Shown here: positions 38,307 to 49,734 of the stretch, piece after piece | Layout: every line of letters starts with the position of its first letter | How positions within the stretch are numbered: the stretch's first letter is position 1 | Assembly (NCBI GenBank): GCA_963663385.2 | Contig: CAXXXD010000001.1 | Coordinates: forward strand, 320,001 to 384,000 | Origin: Oceanispirochaeta sp. | GTDB lineage: Bacteria > Spirochaetota > Spirochaetia > DSM-2461 | Direction of reading: 5' to 3' | DNA: 64,000 nt | Translations under genes and position numbers: made by a program | Notes under the pieces: model-generated | The model's input: the letters and a program-made list of their open reading frames with translations, nothing else | What the model was told of the DNA's origin: nothing | Database searches by the model: none

Positions 38307-38774
38307 TCAGCCGCAGCCCTTACATGACTGACAGGCGCTGTTGCAGCTTTTCCATTTCCGGATTTCAGCTTTGCTGAGAATTCGTTCAATACTCGGCATC
38401 TCTCCCGGGCCGCGGAATTTCCGAATTAACGCATTGACGAGGAAGCCTCCTGCCAGTCCAATCGTTCCCATAAGATAGAGAAGCACTTCTTCCTGTATGA
38501 CTTTGGCTGCAACTGTATACACCAGCAGAAAACAGAGCAGGGGAAAGATAAACATCATAAACGCTGCTTTCATGGCGCCTGCCGGATTAACCAGGATTTC
38601 TACCATATCCCCTTCCTGTACGTTCAGGACATGAGCATTTGATGCGGGAAAAGGTTTCTCCTTAACGCCCCAGAAAGAGCGAGAGGTCCGGGACTTCTCT
38701 GAACCGGGATTCGGGTATATTACATAAACCGCACCGTCCTCTTCGAGATGGTGCACTTTAACCGGCTGTTTCAT
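38307..38774 (-). CDS. RseC/MucC-like membrane protein with C-terminal Cys cluster
   Basis: GDMVEI...AAFMMFIFPLL two-TM pattern; C-terminal CNSACQSCKGCG. Confidence 0.6.
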   Translation of the reverse strand: MKQPVKVHHLEEDGAVYVIYPNPGSEKSRTSRSFWGVKEKPFPASNAHVLNVQEGDMVEILVNPAGAMKAAFMMFIFPLLCFLLVYTVAAKVIQEEVLLYLMGTIGLAGGFLVNALIRKFRGPGEMPSIERILSKAEIRKWKSCNSACQSCKGCG

Positions 38775-39564
38775 CGGGTACCTCCAGACAGGGTATTCGC
38801 AGGCTCTCTATTGACACTGCTTTTCCTGAGTCATCCAGATCAATCAGAACACCCTGAAGCTCCAACTGATCCCATGTATCCTGAGATCTTTCCGGGATTT
38901 GCGTCATAAATTTCCTGAGCTCCAGCTCAGGCTCCAGACCTCCGATGGAATGGAGACTCCCGGTTCGGCCGGAATCCGTTATGATTGCGGTCCCTTTGGG
39001 CATGAGACCGCAATCAGCCGTTATGGCTTTTGTTCCGGAACCGACAACGGCACTGACCTTTCCATCTATCAAATGAAAAAGAGTCTGTTTTTCCGCTGTG
39101 GTCGTTGCGTGAAAATTCACGATAATATGATCGGTCTGCTCACGAACCTTTTTTACAATCTCGGGAAGATAGGAAAAAGGGTTGGAAAGGTGCACACGGT
39201 AATAACCGGACTGACCCAGAATATTGATTACACCTACCCGCTGATCTCCAACATTGAATACCCCCCAGCCTCTTCCGGGACTTCCGGGCGGGTAGTTTGC
39301 CGGACGCAGTAAAAATGATGCTTTTGTAATAAATCCGACCATATCTTTTTTATAGAAGACACATTCTCCGGATGTAATAACATCCAGTCCCAGCTTCTTC
39401 AGATAAAGGGCGTGATTTTTACCTATACCGAAACCGCCGGTAACACCGTTTCCATTGGCAATAACAAAATCAACCCCCTTTTCCTTTCGGATTTTCGGGA
39501 GCATTTTTTTAACAGTAAAGACACCTGCCTTACTGACAATCTCAGCAATAAAGAGAATTTTCAT
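38758..39564 (-). CDS. YmdB/TIGR00282-like metallophosphoesterase with substituted metal ligands
   Basis: MKILF..., LLRPANYP, INILG, AEKQ, ITDSGRTG, LQGV scaffold. Confidence 0.8.
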   Translation of the reverse strand: MKILFIAEIVSKAGVFTVKKMLPKIRKEKGVDFVIANGNGVTGGFGIGKNHALYLKKLGLDVITSGECVFYKKDMVGFITKASFLLRPANYPPGSPGRGWGVFNVGDQRVGVINILGQSGYYRVHLSNPFSYLPEIVKKVREQTDHIIVNFHATTTAEKQTLFHLIDGKVSAVVGSGTKAITADCGLMPKGTAIITDSGRTGSLHSIGGLEPELELRKFMTQIPERSQDTWDQLELQGVLIDLDDSGKAVSIESLRIPCLEVPDETAG

Positions 39565-39581
39565 TACCCTAAAATACTAAA

Positions 39582-39658
39582 ATAACTCATAAGAAACAAT
39601 CATCCGAATCCGCAAACCCAATTGTTTTGATGTATTATCCGGCAATATTGCTGAAATA
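39582..39658 (+). repeat. Left copy of a diverged ~75-bp direct repeat
   Basis: AATCATCCGAA (39598-608) and ATCCGGCAATATTG (39637-50) recur at 52209-19 and 52249-62. Confidence 0.7.
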
Positions 39659-39729
39659 TAACTGAAGTTCCTTCATAAATTGAGCTCCGGAATGTTCAGT
39701 AAAAAAGGAGGCTGCGATTCCCTGAAGTC

Positions 39730-40635
39730 TCAGTCTTTCATGATGTCATCGACGAGACCCATGAACCGCCTGCCGTATTCCACATAATTCTCGTATTTCA
39801 CCTGTTCGGAAGAGCGACTGTCGTCATCGTGATAGACCAGAGCCATATGGGGTTCTATGGAGAATCCTCCGTCGTATCCTCTTTTAAGCAGATCGTCAAC
39901 AATCTCCCGTACGCTGCCCTCTCCCTCTCCGGGGAAAGTCCATTCCGAATCATTGAATATTTTATCGGGCCTGAGTCCCACAAACCGGCCGTCTTTGATA
40001 TGGACATAGGCGACAAACTCCCGTACATTGCAGTAGAAATCCCAGGCATTCTGCATGCGGTTGCCCCTTTCTTTACCGTAGTCAACGGAGTTGACCGGAT
40101 TGCCCGTATCGAAAAGCAGCTTGAACCGGGGAGATTTCACATTATCCAGAAGCCTGAGCGTATGCTCCGGGGACATACCTCCGTAGTTGGCGCAGTTCTC
40201 GTGCATGTAGTCCACGCCGGCGTCCTCGCAGATCCTGACAATCCTGTTCATCTTGCCGAATAAGTTTTTCTCCAGCTCATCCGTATAGAGCGACGCGTCC
40301 CTCAAGCGGGTAAAACTCATCCCCCGTATCATGGTACAACCCAGCCGTTCCATCCGGGGCAGAGCCCTTTTCAGATCGTCGATGCTTTTCGCGAAGTCCT
40401 CTTCAGATCGCGGGTCACGGCTCCAGTTGGCAACGGTACTGCCGAAACAGTTGATAGAAATACCGCTGTCCTCCAGTTTGCCGGCAGCTTCATCGAAAGC
40501 AGCGTCACTCAGATCATGAATATTGACGCCGTCGATATTTCTCGACTCGATACAGTTCCAGCCCAGCTCCTTCGTTGCCCTGATCTGGGCATCAATTCCT
40601 TTTCCCGCCTCATCGGCAAATCCCGTGTAGTACAT
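39730..40635 (-). CDS. Sugar phosphate isomerase/epimerase (xylose-isomerase-like TIM barrel)
   Basis: GFADE, HEN, FDTGN, YVHIKD, GEGEG, GYDGGFSIEPH. Confidence 0.88.
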   Translation of the reverse strand: MYYTGFADEAGKGIDAQIRATKELGWNCIESRNIDGVNIHDLSDAAFDEAAGKLEDSGISINCFGSTVANWSRDPRSEEDFAKSIDDLKRALPRMERLGCTMIRGMSFTRLRDASLYTDELEKNLFGKMNRIVRICEDAGVDYMHENCANYGGMSPEHTLRLLDNVKSPRFKLLFDTGNPVNSVDYGKERGNRMQNAWDFYCNVREFVAYVHIKDGRFVGLRPDKIFNDSEWTFPGEGEGSVREIVDDLLKRGYDGGFSIEPHMALVYHDDDSRSSEQVKYENYVEYGRRFMGLVDDIMKD

Positions 40636-40661
40636 TATTTAACTCCCGTATGTCCTTTCAT

Positions 40662-41825
40662 TCAAAAGGAGCGGCTGAAATTTTCTTCCGCCGTTTTTTC
40701 AACTTTTTTTCTGAATACCGACTTTGCAATCAGCTCCTCCAGCTTTGCCTCGAAGGCCTCTTCATCCACAGGGATTTCCACCATTTTTCCCTCAAAGCTG
40801 GAGAGCATAATGGCATTGTCCATGGCGATGGAGCCGATGCCCTCTGCAGCAGGCGCTATAAGCTCGGCTCTTCCGGCGATGGCGTCGCAGAAATTCTCAA
40901 GGATGATCCGATGCTCTCCCCCTCCGGCGTCAAAGGGTATATCAACGGTCCAGCACTCGGGCTTTTCAAAACCCTTTTCAGCGTTTTTAAGATGATTGAG
41001 AAGCGATTCCCTGTTCCGGAGAAAGGTCAGTCTGTCTCCTTCCCAGATCAGCCGACCCTGCTCTCCCGCAATTTCCAGACGGTTCGTCCCGGGAGCCTCT
41101 CCGGTCGATGTAATGAAATGCCCCACCATACCGTTATCGTATTCAAAGTAGGCCGTTACTTCGTCTTCCACTTCGATGTCATGGTATTTCCCCAGCGAGG
41201 CGAAGCCTCTGACTCGGTCGGGACAGCCGGCGAACCACTGAAACATATCGAGCTGATGGGGACACTGGTTCATGAGAACCCCGCCCCCCTCACCGGCCCA
41301 GGTGGCCCTCCAGCCTCCCGAATTATAGTAGGACTGAGTGCGGTACCAGTCGGTAATAATCCAGGTCATCCGGATCAGTTTCCCCAGTTCCCCCGCATCG
41401 ATCAGTTCCTTGATTTTCCGGGCGGCCCCCCGGGTCCTCTGCTGGAACATGGCGGAGAAAACCAGGCCGGGGGTCTCTTTCCGGGCGGCCTCCCAGGCGG
41501 AAATCATCTTCCGGATATCCTTCACATGGACGCCGACCGGTTTCTCTGTCAGAACGTGGATCCCTCTGGCAAAGGCCTCTACAGCGATGGTCGTGTGGGC
41601 GTAGTGGGGGGTGGCGATGACGATGCCGTCAATCCCGCCGGCGCCGAACAGATCTTCGGTCGAGTTATATCCCCTGCAGCCGTATAAGGCGGCAGCGGCG
41701 TCGGTCTTTTCCGCAGCAATATCGCAGACAGCAGCCAGCTCGGCGGTATCCATAGAAGTGATATCCCGGCAATGGCAGGTTCCCATATTTCCCAGGCCGA
41801 TAACGGCCAGTCTGATTTTATCCAT
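40662..41825 (-). CDS. Gfo/Idh/MocA oxidoreductase
   Basis: GLGNMG, IATPH, EKP, GGGVLMNQCPHQLD. Confidence 0.92.
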   Translation of the reverse strand: MDKIRLAVIGLGNMGTCHCRDITSMDTAELAAVCDIAAEKTDAAAALYGCRGYNSTEDLFGAGGIDGIVIATPHYAHTTIAVEAFARGIHVLTEKPVGVHVKDIRKMISAWEAARKETPGLVFSAMFQQRTRGAARKIKELIDAGELGKLIRMTWIITDWYRTQSYYNSGGWRATWAGEGGGVLMNQCPHQLDMFQWFAGCPDRVRGFASLGKYHDIEVEDEVTAYFEYDNGMVGHFITSTGEAPGTNRLEIAGEQGRLIWEGDRLTFLRNRESLLNHLKNAEKGFEKPECWTVDIPFDAGGGEHRIILENFCDAIAGRAELIAPAAEGIGSIAMDNAIMLSSFEGKMVEIPVDEEAFEAKLEELIAKSVFRKKVEKTAEENFSRSF

Positions 41826-41884
41826 TTATCTCTCCTATAAAAAGTCAATCATAAGCCTATTAACAAGCTTACAATTGAACCGGA

Positions 41885-42997
41885 TTACCCAGTTTTTACG
41901 GCATTGAATGCAGCCGCCTGCATCTTCAAGTACTTATCATCCGGAACCATCTTCAACGGATCAAAGGGTTCACGGGTTTTCAATATGGAGTACACTACCG
42001 TACTCATCTTTCTTGCAGAGGCGATAATACTCGTGCCGCTGCCCTTGTTCTTCTTCATCGCTCTGTACTTCGTCATGATACGGTAATTGCCAGTCGTTTT
42101 CCGAGTTCTAACCATTCCCATAACACACTGAACAAATGCCGTTCTCAGTTCTACAGCCCCTCTCTTTGTTATATGCCCATGATGAATCGTCTCATTGGAG
42201 TTCTGCACCCATGGTACAAGACCGGCATAAGCCGAATACTTCTTGGCACTGGCGTACCGCTTGATATCATCCGTATAGGCCCTAATAGTCGATGCCGTTA
42301 TCAATCCGACTCCCGGGATCGTCTGCAATAACTGTACATCCTCATCTTCCTTTACAAGTTCCAGCAGGACTTTCTCTAACTGCTTGACCTGGTTCGAAAC
42401 CTGATCTATCGTAGAAAGCAGCGGTTCTATCGCTTTGGCAGCGCTTCCGAAACTCCTATGGTCCACGAGACCGATGAGGATGCGCTGCCTTTCTTTTTTA
42501 CTCTGCAGCGCAGCTCTTTTTGTTTCAATTCCATACCCTAGAAGCAGTCCGTGAACCTGATTCTTCAAAGATACGACTGATTTAACAAGGATAGTTCTGG
42601 ATTTAAGAACTCTACGGATATCCTCACTCTCCTGAGAACAAAGCTGTGATTCGGGAAGCATATCTTTTTCCAAGAACTCTGCTAGAGTTCTGGCATCATG
42701 CTTATCCGTCTTTTTCACTGATTCATTTACAACTTTGAATTTCAGTGTATTCACAACCACCACCTCAATCCCTGCTAGCAATAGCTTGTTACGGAAGAAC
42801 CGGGCATTTCCTGTTGATTCCACTGCAGCCCTAACATCAAGGCCCTCTTCTGTATAGGACACTGCTTTCTCAAGAAATGCTCTGTAACCGTCCTCAGAGG
42901 TCGGATACATTCCTGATTCACAAATGCTTCTATCATCACTCAGGAAACAGACTGTTAACTGGGATTTGTGCAGATCCACTCCGATACTCATCTTCAT
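41885..42997 (-). CDS. IS110 DEDD transposase/recombinase
   Basis: GVDLHK, AVEST, KTDKHDA (RuvC-like DEDD), TIPGVG, AYAGLVP..QNS, ARK; ATG 42997 with TAGGAG RBS. Confidence 0.93.
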   Translation of the reverse strand: MKMSIGVDLHKSQLTVCFLSDDRSICESGMYPTSEDGYRAFLEKAVSYTEEGLDVRAAVESTGNARFFRNKLLLAGIEVVVVNTLKFKVVNESVKKTDKHDARTLAEFLEKDMLPESQLCSQESEDIRRVLKSRTILVKSVVSLKNQVHGLLLGYGIETKRAALQSKKERQRILIGLVDHRSFGSAAKAIEPLLSTIDQVSNQVKQLEKVLLELVKEDEDVQLLQTIPGVGLITASTIRAYTDDIKRYASAKKYSAYAGLVPWVQNSNETIHHGHITKRGAVELRTAFVQCVMGMVRTRKTTGNYRIMTKYRAMKKNKGSGTSIIASARKMSTVVYSILKTREPFDPLKMVPDDKYLKMQAAAFNAVKTG

Positions 42998-43011
42998 ACC
43001 TTCGCTCCTAT

Positions 43012-43172
43012 TGCCTAAAACAGCGCCTGTACGGTGAATTGATTCCATTCTCCTATCCGGTCTCGAAGACCATTGAATGTTTCGGTCACGGCTCTTCATT
43101 CTCCTGTACGGTCTCGGAGACCAGTAAAAATGGCGAACAGTAACCTGGCTGTTCTAAACGATGTTTAGAACA
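43012..43172 (-). ncRNA. Putative bridge/seek-type guide RNA in the IS110 non-coding end
   Basis: Hairpin TGTTCTAAAC-N3-GTTTAGAACA (43150-72), then two internal loops closed by GGTCT-NNN-AGACC whose strands match target and donor; ends approximate. Confidence 0.75.
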
Positions 43173-43177
43173 TTGTA

Positions 43178-44314
43178 TCAATCCACAAGCCTATGAAGAC
43201 TTTTTATCATTCCTCCTGTATATTCCAGTATTCGCGGTTCCACCCATGTTTCGAGAGGAATGGCAATCGGGCAGTTTTGAAAATGAGACTGGTAGAGAGC
43301 CAGTACGGTTTCCGTTGTCTCAGCCAGATCCGCCAGGCTCACGACAGGCTCATAGATCTCTCCCTTTTCCCTCATTTCCATAGCGGTTAAAATATCTCTG
43401 TAGTTCTCTCTGTGAAGCGCCCCGTAACAGGATTTTCCCGGGGCTTCAGACGTTCCGTTATCTGTAAAGGGTTCCAGCCTTTCAGTCAGTTCGGGATCTG
43501 TGCAGCTGAATCCACTGCTCCCGGTCAGAGTCAGAATCCCCCGGTCAAACCGCAGGGTCAGCCGCGGATCCCACGGAGTAGTAAGGTCATTCTCGAAATG
43601 CAGACTTATCTTCTGCGATTTCACAATGTCCCGGGGATAGCAAAGTTCTCCCGATCCTTTATCTTCCACTTCGATGGATGCGATTTTCTCTCTGTACAAG
43701 CGGTATTCCGCCGATTCCGGCCGGCCGATCAGATAGTGAAGGAGGTCCAGTGTATGAATCCCCTGATTGATGAGAGTCCCGCCCCCCTCCTCAAGCCATG
43801 TTCCCCTCCAGGAATCGCTTTCATAATAGGCGGGAGGTCTGGTACACAGGAATGTGATATCTCCCCCCAGAGTCTGTCCCAGAGTATTTTCCCGGATAAG
43901 ATTTCTCACTTCTCCGATCAGAGGGGAGAAGCGGTGCTGAAAGATCCCGAAAGAAAAGATTCCCCGTTCTTCCGCATTCAAGGCGGCAGTTTTCATACGG
44001 GCAAGCTGCTCCAGCGAGACAGCAAGGGGTTTTTCGCATATAACATGTTTGCCCGCTTCCAGGGCGTCAACCAGCGCCTGTTCATGAAGGTGGTGAGGAA
44101 GACAGAGCGCCACGGCCTGAATATCGGCAGAACACAGCATTTCCTTCCAGTCACTGTAAAGCCGACAGTTCCGACGGGAATCTAGTTTTGACAGTTTTTC
44201 CGGGTCTGTATCGCACAATGCCGACAACAAGGCCCGACCGTCATTCTCTATAGCCCAGGCATGGCTTTCCGCAATACTGCCGCATCCGATAATACCGATC
44301 TTCAGTTTCTTCAT
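43178..44314 (-). CDS. Gfo/Idh/MocA oxidoreductase; last 11 residues encoded by the IS end
   Basis: IGIIGCGSIA, CEKP, GGGTLINQGIHTLD; ATG 44314 preferred. Confidence 0.88.
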   Translation of the reverse strand: MKKLKIGIIGCGSIAESHAWAIENDGRALLSALCDTDPEKLSKLDSRRNCRLYSDWKEMLCSADIQAVALCLPHHLHEQALVDALEAGKHVICEKPLAVSLEQLARMKTAALNAEERGIFSFGIFQHRFSPLIGEVRNLIRENTLGQTLGGDITFLCTRPPAYYESDSWRGTWLEEGGGTLINQGIHTLDLLHYLIGRPESAEYRLYREKIASIEVEDKGSGELCYPRDIVKSQKISLHFENDLTTPWDPRLTLRFDRGILTLTGSSGFSCTDPELTERLEPFTDNGTSEAPGKSCYGALHRENYRDILTAMEMREKGEIYEPVVSLADLAETTETVLALYQSHFQNCPIAIPLETWVEPRILEYTGGMIKSLHRLVD

Positions 44315-44409
44315 ATCCCTACCATAATTCCGGTTCCAGCATTTATGAATGACTGTATTCTGAAGAAACATGGACTTTTTCTGACTATTTACTATAATCT
44401 AGGAGTATT

Positions 44410-45237
44410 ATGAGAGACAGAGAACCTTTTTTTAAAACCATTCCCTACCGAAACAGCATTCTCGATATAGATACGGATCCCTATCCCCAGGTTCAGGGGG
44501 CCGAGTGGTCCATTGAGAACAGGACCATGAACGATTACGACCTTTTCATCTGCCAAGAGGGGAGCGCCCGCTTTGCCATCGGATCAGCGACCTATGACCT
44601 CAGGCCCGGAATGGCACTTCTGGTTCCGCCGAACCAGCTGATCAACGCTCGTCGAACCAGCGACAAGCCTTTGAAGATGATCGCCCAGCACTTTATGCTC
44701 TACCTCTTCAACAGAACGGATTTTTTCAGCCTTATACAATACTGCCCCTGTGTTTCTCTGCCTAACTGGAATTTTCTCTCCTCAATCTGTCTGGAGATCT
44801 GGAAAATCAGATCGTCCGCAGGCGAAAAATGGACTCCTTACGATACAAGCTCCCTTTTCAGGATTCTTCTGGACGCCTATATAGACGAAGCATACGAAGG
44901 AGAGGATTTCCGGGAGGAACGGAAGAGTTCCCTGGTTCTCAGGATGATCGGAGCGATCGAACAGGATTACAGGAATCCTCTGCTGCTGGAAAAGCTCATG
45001 GACCGTTCGGCCTTCGGTTACAGCCATACGGCCAACACCTTCAAAGAGTATACGGGTCTCTCACTGAAGGCTTACATAATAGAAAGACGAATCGGCGCAG
45101 CAAAAGAGGCGCTTCTGAAGGGGGGCAGCGTACGGGAGAGCGCGGAAGCCGCGGGATACGAAGATGAGTTCTATTTTTCGCGCATCTTCAAAAAATACAC
45201 GGGAACCTCTCCCCGGGATTTCAGAAAGAGGATCTAA
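44410..45237 (+). CDS. AraC-family regulator, divergent from the oxidoreductase operon
   Basis: Cupin-like N-terminus; C-terminal AGYEDEFYFSRIFKKYTGTSPRDFR. Confidence 0.92.
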   Translation: MRDREPFFKTIPYRNSILDIDTDPYPQVQGAEWSIENRTMNDYDLFICQEGSARFAIGSATYDLRPGMALLVPPNQLINARRTSDKPLKMIAQHFMLYLFNRTDFFSLIQYCPCVSLPNWNFLSSICLEIWKIRSSAGEKWTPYDTSSLFRILLDAYIDEAYEGEDFREERKSSLVLRMIGAIEQDYRNPLLLEKLMDRSAFGYSHTANTFKEYTGLSLKAYIIERRIGAAKEALLKGGSVRESAEAAGYEDEFYFSRIFKKYTGTSPRDFRKRI

Positions 45238-48075: not shown

Positions 48076-48204
48076 CACTATTCCCGGAATAATAGAACTT
48101 TTTCAACTTTAAGAAACTGTATCTGAAAAGTCAAATTATCATCAGATACCAAATCTCCCCGGAGGTGTAATGTGATTTATCAAACATTTTCAAAAGGAGA
48201 AAAA

Positions 48205-49734
48205 ATGAAAAGAGTACTGATTCTATTCACAGCCTTTCTGCTTTCAACCAATGTCTACTCTTCCGGTTCTCAGGAGACCGGAGAGGAACAAGTCACACCA
48301 AAAATCGTTATCTACAATAATAACGGTGTTATCAGCGGTGCAGGCGGAGAGACCGCCAGCTCTCCGGAAATTCTGGAAAAAATGAAAGCCTGGGTTCTCA
48401 CGGAAACCGGTATAGAGGTAGAAGTTATCGCTCCTGTTGTGGGACAGGAATCACAGAAACTGAACCTGCTCCTCGCCTCCGGAGCGCAGGTTGATGCATT
48501 CTGGGGTAACTGGCCGGATTTTGCCTCAAGGAACATGATTCTTCCATTGAACGATTTATTAAAGGATCACGGTTCAGCCATTCTGGGAGCATGGCCAGAA
48601 GAGTCTTTTAATGCCATGTCCGACCCCAAGGGGACATTGTGGGGGATTCCCAGATCGACACCCTTTATGGGAAATCCTCTTTTTGTGCGAGCCGACTGGG
48701 CTGAAAAATTTGGAATGGGCATTCCGGAAACAATAGAAGAACTGGATGCTTATTTTGCTGCTGTCAAGAAAAATGAACCAAACGCAATTCCTCTTCTGGC
48801 GGAAATGAAAGGGAAACATGGTTCCAGTGGTATATTCCAGACATTCCTTGGCGCCTTTACTGAGTATGGAGCCAGTAACTGGCTGGATAACGATGGGAAG
48901 ATTAAACCTCAGGAATTACAACCGGGATATAGGGAATTCATAGTAAAAATGAATGAGTGGTACAAAGCCGGATATATTTATCCGGAATTTGCCTCTCTAA
49001 ACCGTAATATTATCAGGGATTTGATCAAATCCGGTAAAGTTGCAGCCAATGCCACATGGTACTCCAATGTAACGGTACCCTACGCAACAACTGAAGCTAA
49101 TAACCCGGGAATCGATATGCAATTCCCCGAAGGCGGTCTTGTCGGACCTTCCGGAAAAGCGGAAACAATTAAACCCGCCGGAGTTGAAGGCATGCTTATT
49201 TCCGCAAGATGCGAGAATCCGGAAGCGGTTATTCAAGTAATGGATTTTTTCTATTCTGATCCTGCCAATCATCAGGTTGCTTACATGGGCCCCGAAAACG
49301 GATTGTGGAAATGGACTGATAAAGAGAATCTTCAGTTTGAAATTCTTAAAGAAAGAACAGGATACCTTGGAGATTATGCCTTTGCAATGGGACTTCCCAT
49401 GGAACGTGCCGTATCAACAGACAGCCCCCAGATGGCAAAACACTTTGGATACCTTGGAGTGGGAACTGTCGGATCGGGAATCACTCCTGACGGACTGGAT
49501 TACTCAAGAGGCAAAATGCCTGTTGATGCGGGAGTTGTATACGACCCCCAGATCATAGAAAAAGAGATCCCCGGTTATACCGATCTGCAGCGAATGAGAG
49601 AGGAAGAAGTCATCAAATTCATTATGGGCGCAAGACCTATCGGAGAATGGGACTCTTTTATCGACGAGCTGTATTCCATCGGATTGAATGACTGGATTGA
49701 TGCTCATACAGAAATGTACAAATCTCAGAAATAA
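48205..49734 (+). CDS. Carbohydrate ABC transporter solute-binding protein (LplA-like)
   Basis: AAGGAG RBS, MKRVL...SSGSQE signal, KLNLLLASG, VRADW, KFIMG. Confidence 0.88.
   Translation: MKRVLILFTAFLLSTNVYSSGSQETGEEQVTPKIVIYNNNGVISGAGGETASSPEILEKMKAWVLTETGIEVEVIAPVVGQESQKLNLLLASGAQVDAFWGNWPDFASRNMILPLNDLLKDHGSAILGAWPEESFNAMSDPKGTLWGIPRSTPFMGNPLFVRADWAEKFGMGIPETIEELDAYFAAVKKNEPNAIPLLAEMKGKHGSSGIFQTFLGAFTEYGASNWLDNDGKIKPQELQPGYREFIVKMNEWYKAGYIYPEFASLNRNIIRDLIKSGKVAANATWYSNVTVPYATTEANNPGIDMQFPEGGLVGPSGKAETIKPAGVEGMLISARCENPEAVIQVMDFFYSDPANHQVAYMGPENGLWKWTDKENLQFEILKERTGYLGDYAFAMGLPMERAVSTDSPQMAKHFGYLGVGTVGSGITPDGLDYSRGKMPVDAGVVYDPQIIEKEIPGYTDLQRMREEEVIKFIMGARPIGEWDSFIDELYSIGLNDWIDAHTEMYKSQK

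Follow-up and report, generated by a model that had tools for sequence, protein, structure and literature searches.

An IS110-family element of Oceanispirochaeta sp. whose bridge RNA may read the Shine-Dalgarno sequence and the start codon as its DNA target

An IS110-family element separates two oxidoreductase genes on the reverse strand of the window analysed here (64,000 nucleotides of Oceanispirochaeta sp., contig CAXXXD010000001.1). The question that this locus raises is why the word AGGAG, a Shine-Dalgarno (SD) sequence, stands at both ends of the insertion: at 43217-43213 (- strand), just left of the element, and at 41836-41832, as the last five bases of the element. A sequence-only reading of the window had pointed to this pair of words, and had proposed that excision restores a coupled junction between the oxidoreductases and that the upstream gene gained an element-coded tail and stop. 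We confirmed these points. When the element was removed in silico, the ORF of the upstream GFO/IDH/MocA oxidoreductase ended as ...PRILEYTGEING*, with the stop 14 nt past the junction, and this restored end overlapped the ATG of the downstream oxidoreductase (41825-41823). With the element in place, the same ORF terminates inside it as ...GGMIKSLHRLVD*. A 10-codon mini-ORF begins at ATG 43210 (-), within the left end of the element. Table 1 collects the features of the locus.

Table 1. Features of the element, its encoded RNA and its insertion site (positions in the window)
Feature	Position	Strand	Evidence or remark
Left target flank, 8 nt with the host SD at its end	43213..43220	-	AGGAG 43217-43213; identical to the 3' target guide
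Tail and stop that the element gives to the upstream oxidoreductase ORF (43178-44371)	43178..43212	-	ORF reading
IS110-family element	41832..43212	-	1381 bp, counting the shared AGGAG once; same end words in all copies
TG and -10-like hexamer of the left end	43201..43209	-	Hexamer 43206-43201
Left arm of the sub-terminal inverted repeat, 10 bp	43198..43207	-	100% complementary to 41837-41846
5' stem-loop of the bridge RNA	43150..43172	-	10-nt inverted repeat; folds; arms of relatives differ yet stay complementary
5' strand of the target-loop closing stem	43134..43145	-	Partner 43084-43100; RNAalifold compensatory changes
Target loop 5' guide, 11 nt, CAU (anti-ATG) and U-run	43123..43133	-	CAT in 24/25 guide types; ATG-aligned covariation
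Hairpin between the target guides	43109..43122	-	Compensatory changes in its pairs (4 and 6)
Target loop 3' guide, 8 nt, AGGAG after three variable bases	43101..43108	-	Left-flank sense; covaries at -8 to -6
Donor loop 5' guide, reverse complement of the element's first 5 nt	43075..43079	-	Perfect in 24/28 element types
Hairpin between the donor guides	43058..43071	-	Pairs with 11 and 10 compensatory changes
Donor loop 3' guide	43050..43057	-	Last 7 nt = last 7 nt of the element
Transposase (bridge recombinase) gene	41885..42997	-	370 aa; Pfam and NCBIfam; IS621 8wt6 E 9e-16
Right-end hairpin followed by a U-run (41844-41838), terminator-like	41845..41878	-	z -3.65; 3' arm overlaps TTGACT 41848-41843
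AGGAG of the right end, SD now before the downstream gene	41832..41836	-	48/49 related loci and 17/17 copies in the bacterial family
Right target flank: spacer of 6 nt, then the downstream oxidoreductase start	41817..41831	-	ORF 40662-41825
Unoccupied look-alike, SD, 5-nt spacer and ATG of a 520-aa ORF	48195..48207	+	2 + 2 mismatches to the guides

At the family level, the transposase presented both an N-terminal DEDD RuvC-like domain (DEDD_Tnp_IS110, PF01548, E 8.7e-21) and a C-terminal Tnp domain (Transposase_20, PF02371, E 4.6e-19), the combination that defines the IS110 family. The NCBIfam model NF033542, 'IS110 family RNA-guided transposase', scored 228 bits against a cut-off of 140. In the alignment to IS621 (8wt6), the E of ESTG and the two D of KTDKHDA were aligned, the first D lay outside the aligned stretch, and a serine in the Tnp domain was aligned with a serine of IS621. 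The genome carries ten copies of the element (99.6-100% identity, each 1381 bp), and all ten have AGGAG at both junctions, a short core common to donor and target. The repeat search found no classical terminal inverted repeats, and the sole end repeat was sub-terminal, of 10 bp. The non-coding left end measures 215 nt, and ~52 nt follow the transposase stop codon. The ORFs antisense to the transposase within the element are 60, 52, and 88 aa long.

The left end encodes, on the same strand as the transposase, a bridge RNA with a target loop and a donor loop. Both loops are laid out as guide, hairpin and guide; they are paralogous 32-nt direct repeats, 84% alike, and each holds AGGAG followed by the same few bases. 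An RNA alignment of 24 sequences displayed 26 consensus pairs, 10 of them with compensatory changes, and the G-U pairs in the consensus fold fit the sense strand only. A long-range stem closes the donor loop, and the 5' stem-loop and the target loop lie within it too. The sequence-only reading had suggested that guide segments of the element spell SD-spacer-ATG, and we located them at 43133-43123 and 43108-43101: the 3' target guide repeats the 8 nt just left of the element, and the 5' guide, once reverse-complemented, gives an A-rich stretch and an ATG. Inspection by eye of the bases after each 3' guide did not place IS621-like handshake guides among them. A scan of 41500-43600 against Rfam 15 to E 1 retrieved only a chance-level LPR69 match, outside the element.

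The ten copies in this genome all lie between a GGAG-type SD (xAGGAG) and, 6-8 nt downstream of it, the ATG of an ORF of 98-689 aa, and all are in sense orientation to that downstream gene. For the background, we counted start codons within 4-10 nt after the left motif that open an ORF of at least 80 aa: 9.7-11.1% of the unoccupied sites with the same left motif in this genome presented this context. By our own arithmetic from a background of ~10%, ten of ten would occur by chance with a probability of ~1e-10. From their first residues, the genes downstream of the ten copies look accessory to us.

When comparing both flanks with the guides, the left flank was far better conserved than the right one across copies, and matched the 3' guide at 8/8 positions in six copies, at 7/8 in three, and at 6/8 in one. 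The right-hand match was loose, with 3-6 mismatches of 9 to the 5' guide in this genome (3, 3, 3, 4, 5, and 6 at the six occupied perfect-left sites). The 349 unoccupied perfect-left sites peaked at 7 right mismatches and differed from the occupied ones (Mann-Whitney p 1.6e-4), as did the 34 of them that are SD-like (p 0.002). No site in the genome had fewer than 3 mismatches to the 17 guide-implied positions; ten sites had at most 3 of 17, and three of these are occupied. The site at 48195-48207, which had been singled out as resembling an unoccupied target, is a real gene start but an ordinary weak match, one of 114 unoccupied sites in the genome with at most 4 guide mismatches.

Sister genomes obey the same rule in 7/7 copies (one in G005 and six in G020). 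Among 76 relative loci from genome contigs, both element ends were recovered in 49, and the pooled set comprised 66 insertions and 25 guide types from several phyla. In this set, 64/66 left flanks end in GGAG, and 52/66 sites present a start codon and an ORF 3-11 nt past the junction; seven flanks were too short and seven sites fail. Among the failing ones, L019, L049, L055, and L081 show an ATG after 4-6 nt, but their flank or ORF is short; in L061 the ATG comes after 14 nt, and L082 and L087 lack one. The orientation was sense in every site judged, relatives included, and a 33%-identical element from Lentisphaeria has the same flank pattern. Targeting of translation-initiation regions in sense, the central claim of the sequence-only reading, was therefore seen in 10/10 copies here, 7/7 in sister genomes, and 52/59 usable sites of the relatives; that reading had also asked whether other copies sit at sites unrelated to RBS or ATG, and these counts answer it in the negative.

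That the guides match their flanks, another of its claims, found support in covariation across the 25 guide types, with the target as well as with the donor. In permutation tests, whose p-values overstate independence because the element types are related, the left guide matched flank positions -8 to -6 at 2.08 of 3 bases, compared to 1.21 when permuted (0/20000 permutations reached 2.08); the match of the donor 5' guide to the element start was likewise reached by 0/20000 permutations, with compensatory variants in five types; and the right guide, aligned on the ATG, covaried with the 5 nt before the start codon (p ~0.001). It tracked the ATG within each spacer class (p 0.0008 without a shift for spacer 5; p 0.005 with a shift of 1 for spacer 6). 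Aligned on the junction, the right guide gave no significant match (p 0.07-0.09), and for that reason we abandoned the idea that this guide pairs without a gap from the core onwards. For the donor 3' guide no covariation is possible, since both the guide and the element end are invariant (donor end, 27/28 types). Spacer lengths in the 52 sites were 3 nt (1), 5 nt (10), 6 nt (30), 7 nt (7), 8 nt (3), and 9 nt (1). The modal spacer is thus 6 nt (30/52), compared to the 5 nt implied by the guide, a difference that calls for some slack or an unpaired base.

The empty allele was another check proposed at the outset. It was not found in the same species (genus genomes, four public runs, and a metagenome scan), whereas orthologous sites in sister species were uninterrupted for 2/10 copies: their flanking genes are adjacent and the SD-spacer-ATG is intact (7/7 and 2/2 loci). 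For the locus in the window, the left flank (788 nt) had no DNA match in 10 genomes of the genus, and orthologues of the downstream gene were present in 3/10 genus genomes, with a different upstream neighbour. The four public runs, compared with 41400-43700, gave no contig bridging the site and no joints; run X10 contained the same right junction and run X7 the element at other sites seen in G000. Scanning metagenomes with the upstream protein retrieved one irrelevant locus, with 33% identity.

We consider, with a probability of roughly 85%, that this IS110-family element uses a bridge RNA to recognise a translation-initiation region as DNA, and that it lands between the SD and the start codon with both signals kept. 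The 3' target guide carries the SD and the three preceding bases, and the 5' guide is complementary to an A-rich spacer and the ATG. On the donor side, the 3' guide corresponds to the last 7 nt of the element, also ending in AGGAG, and the 5' guide is complementary to its first 5 nt. Recombination would take place inside the AGGAG common to donor and target, so the element would land between SD and start codon, in the sense of the gene. The crossover is probably at the last two bases of AGGAG, judging from IS621, whose CT core it would match on the opposite strand. The host SD remains on the left, the AGGAG of the element replaces it before the spacer and the ATG, and the ORF stays unbroken. 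Read-through from host promoters, which the sequence-only reading also proposed together with near-neutral sites, may occur, and the rebuilt SD may be of some benefit. The site bias could be strengthened by selection against insertions in genes.

The right end bears on the rebuilding of the interrupted RBS, which had also been claimed. At the sequence level this stands: AGGAG was present at every right junction but that of L048, whose right end is ...GGGG. Just ahead of the rebuilt SD, 7 nt before the junction, lies a conserved hairpin with a U-run. It is at the same place, with different sequences, in most of the 26 right ends of relatives that we folded, and this terminator-like structure argues against the neutrality of the insertion. 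The TTGACT of the right end and the -10-like hexamer of the left end, both conserved in relatives, are separated by a 17-nt spacer on the circle junction, where, by analogy with IS621, they may form a promoter. Scanning the integrated copy detected no sigma-70-like promoter on the sense strand within the left end.

The same data can be read in other ways. The RNA could read only the left 6-8 nt, with the link to the start codon arising from selective loss of in-gene insertions at the same motif. The better conserved left flank and the lack of a significant junction-anchored match for the right guide are in line with it, and the near-identical copies would be the survivors of a recent burst. 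However, the 5' guide keeps CAT in nearly all types and covaries with the bases before the ATG, occupied sites fit it better than SD-like unoccupied sites with a perfect left match, and every judged site is in sense; we find this explanation improbable. Even more so is chance, by which the guides of one arbitrary start-like target would happen to resemble SD and ATG. Only the shortness of the motifs speaks for it, whereas guide types with different variable bases keep xAGGAG and, in all but one, CAT, and L082, which lost both, sits at a non-start site. We regard it as very improbable.

A further reading, unlikely rather than improbable, accepts start targeting but takes the rebuilt SD for a by-product and no adaptation. 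The paired loops of this clade would need AGGAG as a fixed, extended core, which would put it at both junctions, and the downstream gene may still be silenced. The likeness of the two loops, with AGGAG and the same following bases in each, and the invariant donor end would fit, as would the conserved hairpin and U-run ahead of the junction and the accessory look of the downstream genes. Nevertheless, a 2-nt shared core suffices for IS621 (PMC11208160, PMC11208158), and the IS110 family in general thus does not require an identity of 5 nt. Moreover, 7/10 copies are preceded by a same-strand ORF whose end overlaps the junction or lies at most 121 nt from it, and loss of the next cistron there would be expected to cost.

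We also compared the element with known systems. Durrant et al. 2024 (PMC11208160) and Hiraizumi et al. 2024 (PMC11208158) describe IS621/IS110 bridge-RNA elements with a DEDD/Tnp recombinase and a long left end encoding an RNA with two loops; IS621 has a 2-nt shared core (CT), and its donor and target otherwise differ. The element resembles IS621 in its target and donor loops, with two guides each reading opposite strands, in a core common to donor and target and present at both junctions, and in carrying a -35 at its right end and a -10 at its left, which would come together on the circle. The guide order, however, is reversed in both loops: in IS621 a stem is followed by the left guide, a stem-loop and the right guide, whereas here complementarity to the right side belongs to the 5' guide and identity to the left side to the 3' guide. 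The donor loop lies in a long-range nested stem (loops in series in IS621), the sub-terminal inverted repeat is of 10 bp (2-3 bp in IS621-type, IS110-group elements), the donor-target identity is of 5 nt (2-nt core in IS621), and the natural target is a start region (a REP-type repeat in IS621). The RNA-transposase cassette would in effect be reversed relative to the target polarity and, read so, the core would again be CT. The element may work like IS621 without the RNA layout of IS621. Like the IS1111 group as presented in PMC11208160, with its sub-terminal inverted repeats of 7-17 bp, it has a long sub-terminal inverted repeat and places the donor-binding bases in a multi-loop instead of a simple internal one. 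In contrast, the RNA of IS1111 elements comes from a long right end and their left end is short, whereas here the RNA lies in the long left end and the right end is short.

Start-region targeting by an IS110-family element is already known from IS900 of Mycobacterium avium subsp. paratuberculosis, and here it occurs in the opposite orientation. According to PMC8141618, the IS900 target motif is CATGNNNNNNTCTCCTT, which as written is the reverse complement of SD-N6-ATG. As in our case, IS900 inserts in the gap of ~6 nt that separates an SD-like sequence from a start codon, does so in one orientation, and rarely enters coding sequence. The hed ORF of IS900, antisense to its transposase, is said there to use the host RBS, and the IS900 transposase would accordingly be antisense to the host gene. 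Here, the transposase is sense to the host gene and no antisense ORF exceeds 88 aa. The hosts are spirochaetes and other phyla, compared to actinobacteria for IS900. In a literature search that reached few subscription journals, no paper connected IS900 with a bridge RNA, or IS110 bridge RNAs with the SD or the start codon as targets.

More broadly, we tentatively propose, at somewhat less than even odds, that a deep IS110 clade, in MAGs labelled from at least six phyla, reads the bacterial start signal as a DNA target in two parts, with the 3' guide for the SD and a near-invariant CAU in the 5' guide for the start codon. The two halves would have a few bases of slack between them, pairing would track the ATG and not the crossover, and the guide order and nested fold would mirror IS621. 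With its spare SD, such an element could settle in leaders and operon junctions of nearly all hosts. In genome annotation, a copy from this clade would mark a true start codon. For bridge-recombinase engineering, the element bears on the reversed guide order, the nested donor loop, and the variable gap next to the core. The bridge-RNA mechanism would supply a sequence-level reason for the old observation of IS900 at start signals, and this habit would belong to a wide clade, with transposases down to 33% identity, rather than being a mycobacterial oddity. A target that stands before nearly every gene in nearly every bacterium, and is left intact, would explain movement across phyla and multiplication without ORF breakage.

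At the level of target choice, the sequence-only reading held that the element is guided to Shine-Dalgarno (SD) sites and rebuilds the ribosome-binding site that it interrupts. From the comparison of copies, guides and flanks, we consider the finding real and this reading right in its core, an apparently RNA-programmed choice of start regions in which the SD is re-supplied. Its description of the site was also right in all details checked. AGGAG lies directly left of the element (in transposase sense) and again forms its last five bases. When the element was deleted by script, the upstream ORF ended in YTGEING, with its stop 14 nt past the junction and overlapping the downstream ATG; with the element present, this ORF extends 35 nt into it and ends in GMIKSLHRLVD. 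The orthologue of the downstream gene in a related genome (G004) has its own xCAGGAG, 5 nt and ATG.

The 370-aa protein scored 228 bits against the NCBIfam model "IS110 family RNA-guided transposase" (cut-off 140), and the solved IS621 transposase was a match (E 9e-16). The element is flanked by two GFO/IDH/MocA oxidoreductase genes, both in the same orientation. The surrounding cluster, which also holds an isomerase-like ORF and a putative regulator, looks like an accessory sugar-use operon.

The genome carries 10 copies with 99.6-100% identity. Every copy has (A/C)AGGAG on its left and, on its right, a 6-8-nt A/T-rich spacer followed by an ATG that opens an ORF of 98-689 aa in transposase orientation. 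As background, a start codon with an ORF of at least 80 aa follows only 7.7-11.1% of the unoccupied sites in the host genome with the same left motif (the same 5- to 8-nt sequence). Many of the sites are operon-internal, since at 7/10 a same-strand ORF ends within 121 nt upstream of the junction or overlaps it.

The 3' target guide matched the left 8-mer perfectly in six copies, with one mismatch in three and two in the last. For the six perfect copies, the right flank differed from the 5' guide complement at 3, 3, 3, 4, 5, and 6 of 9 positions, versus a peak at 7 among 349 unoccupied perfect-left sites (p 1.6e-4) and a range of 4 to 9 among the 34 of these that were SD-like (p 0.002). Scoring the host genome retrieved no site with fewer than 3 mismatches to the 17 guide-implied positions; ten sites had 3/17, and three of them were occupied. 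The guide reads like an idealised start region rather than a single locus.

Relatives in the public collection from the host's bacterial family bear the Spirochaetia label. Two genomes of this family carry elements with 75 and 71% DNA identity to ours, in 1 and 6 copies, and the site is xAGGAG, 5-6 nt, ATG every time. Scanning one genome per species yielded 76 loci, whose transposases are 79-32% identical; the MAGs they come from bear the labels Spirochaetia, Desulfobacterales, Gracilibacteria, WWE3, Dehalococcoidales, Dysgonamonadaceae, Leptospira, and Lentisphaeria; such labels can be wrong, since binning may misplace contigs. In 49 of these loci, both end motifs could be located, giving 66 sites and 25 guide types together with the 17 family copies. 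The left flank ends in GGAG in 64/66 sites, and a start codon with an ORF lies 3-11 nt past the junction in 52/66, with spacers of 3 (one site), 5 (10), 6 (30), 7 (7), 8 (3), and 9 nt (1). Targeting of start regions was borne out in 10/10 host copies, 7/7 copies of the two family genomes, and 52/66 pooled sites, which include these 17.

Of the other pooled sites, seven have a flank truncated by a contig end, and seven lack such a start codon and ORF. Four of the latter have an ATG 4-6 nt on, but the flank or ORF is too short; at locus L061, the ATG comes 14 nt on, behind a long stretch of purines, and no ATG was found in the right flanks of L082 and L087. Only in L082, from the Leptospira-labelled MAG, have AGGAG and CAT both disappeared from the guides. 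This relative is not flanked by a start region, and GG is absent from its left flank as it is from its guide; it may have been reprogrammed towards a different target. In the Lentisphaeria element (33% identical), the ends differ and the habit is shared: GGAG ends 8/9 left flanks, and ATG plus ORF lies within 2-9 nt in 8/11 right flanks. In one Spirochaetia MAG with 15 copies (L032-L045, L050), most left flanks fit the donor right end one base better than the target guide, and have a T-run in common with the element's right end. Local start regions may simply look this way, or the donor guide may contribute to target selection.

Regarding the guide RNA, the 215 nt ahead of the transposase gene contain two 32-nt paralogous units, first the target loop and then the donor loop, 84% alike and each arranged as guide-hairpin-guide. 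An alignment of 24 left ends gave a consensus fold of 26 pairs –10 with compensatory changes– that includes both hairpins, the closing stem of the first loop, and a long-range stem closing the second loop around everything else, so that both the 5' stem-loop and the entire target loop are enclosed. G-U pairs are frequent and compatible only with the transposase strand.

Features of the element and its surroundings, in window coordinates
Feature	Position	Strand	Remarks
IS110-family element, 1381 bp	41832-43212	minus	10 near-identical copies in genome
Transposase gene, 370 aa	42997-41885	minus	both Pfam domains of IS110 transposases
AGGAG, left flank	43217-43213	minus	
AGGAG, right end	41836-41832	minus	
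Target loop 5' guide	43133-43123	minus	reverse complement of A-rich spacer, ATG and one more base
Target loop 3' guide	43108-43101	minus	same sequence as the 8-nt left flank
Donor loop 5' guide	43079-43075	minus	reverse complement of the element's first 5 nt
Donor loop 3' guide	43057-43050	minus	last 7 nt equal the element's last 7 nt
Long-range stem	43182-43186 with 43034-43038	minus	closes the donor loop; alignment columns 37-41 with 197-201; both sides changed in up to 10 sequences
15-pair hairpin, then U-run	41838-41878	minus	ends 7 nt before right junction
Sub-terminal direct repeat, 14 nt	41850-41863 and 43184-43197		one copy near each end, 86% alike; inside the 10-bp inverted repeat
Third loop-hairpin copy, then the 7 nt of the donor 3' guide	42451-42480	minus	within transposase coding sequence
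Surrounding cluster	38758-45237		holds element and both oxidoreductases
TIM-barrel sugar isomerase-like ORF	39730-40635		judged from look of translation
Divergent AraC-type regulator	44410-45237		judged from look of translation

The third hairpin copy within the gene recurs at the corresponding position in 5 of the 25 related types examined (L046, L048, L051, L053, L081), and may reflect coding constraint or be a pseudo-site. In L060, part of the terminal 20-odd bases recurs within the right end (last 65 nt of the element), resembling a footprint or a nested partial insertion.

The guides covary with flanks and ends. At the three variable positions before AGGAG, guides matched their own flank at 2.08 of 3, versus 1.21 when shuffled among types, and none of 20000 shuffles attained the observed value. 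The donor 5' guide is the reverse complement of the element's first 5 nt in 24/28 types, with compensatory variants in five (again 0/20000). The right-hand target guide presented no significant covariation when aligned on the junction (p 0.07-0.09), versus p about 0.001 when aligned on the ATG. Since the significant register moves with spacer length –unshifted at 5-nt sites (p 0.0008), shifted by one at 6-nt sites (p 0.005)– its pairing would follow the start codon, with slack beside the crossover. Numbers are small and types related, so we hold this with moderate confidence.

No same-species empty allele was found in 10 genomes of the genus, four public runs, or a metagenome scan with the upstream protein. 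For two other copies, sister species have the flanking genes side by side with SD-spacer-ATG uninterrupted (7/7 and 2/2 loci), resembling the empty site implied in the window.

As described in two IS621 papers (PMC11208160; PMC11208158), each IS621 loop runs stem, left guide, stem-loop, right guide; the left guide pairs with the bottom and the right guide with the top strand. Guide order is reversed in both loops of our element. On the opposite strand, the arrangement is the canonical one, and the shared bases open with CT, which forms the core in IS621 and related elements; thus, the cassette of RNA and transposase is inverted with respect to recombination polarity. The nested fold, with the donor loop around the target loop, also differs from IS621, whose loops lie in series. 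The sub-terminal inverted repeat of 10 bp and the multi-loop donor site recall the IS1111 group as described by Durrant et al. (PMC11208160), and the long RNA-bearing left end recalls the IS110 group.

Start-region targeting has already been reported for IS900, also of the IS110 family, and the present clade is a variant thereof, not a new kind. In a 1997 paper by Doran et al., IS900 reportedly targets translation-initiation signals. Its target motif, CATGNNNNNNTCTCCTT (PMC8141618), is the reverse complement of SD-N6-ATG. The IS900 transposase appears to run opposite to the host gene, whose signals would serve the hed ORF, whereas the present clade inserts in the sense direction and lacks a long antisense ORF. 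Our literature search, with most subscription journals outside its scope, found no paper linking start-region targeting to bridge RNAs, and the bridge- and seek-RNA publications consulted make no mention of targets of this kind.

For the neighbouring genes, the proposed rebuilding of the SD held: the element's right terminus provides AGGAG, at the native distance from the ATG, in 17/17 family copies and 48/49 other loci. On the left, an element ATG stands 2 nt past the host SD and opens a short ORF whose length varies; this ATG is missing in 3/28 types, and we take the mini-ORF to be incidental. At the circle junction, the right-end TTGACT would be placed 17 nt from a left-end TG and -10-like hexamer, a putative promoter; one forms at the circle junction of IS621 (PMC11208160). 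The right-end hairpin overlaps this -35-like TTGACT and, with its U-run, looks like an intrinsic terminator; among the right ends of 26 relatives that were folded, most have a hairpin at the same place, with different sequences. The near-neutral insertion proposed in the sequence-only reading is therefore unproven: were the hairpin to act as a terminator, the downstream gene would keep its SD yet lose its promoter.
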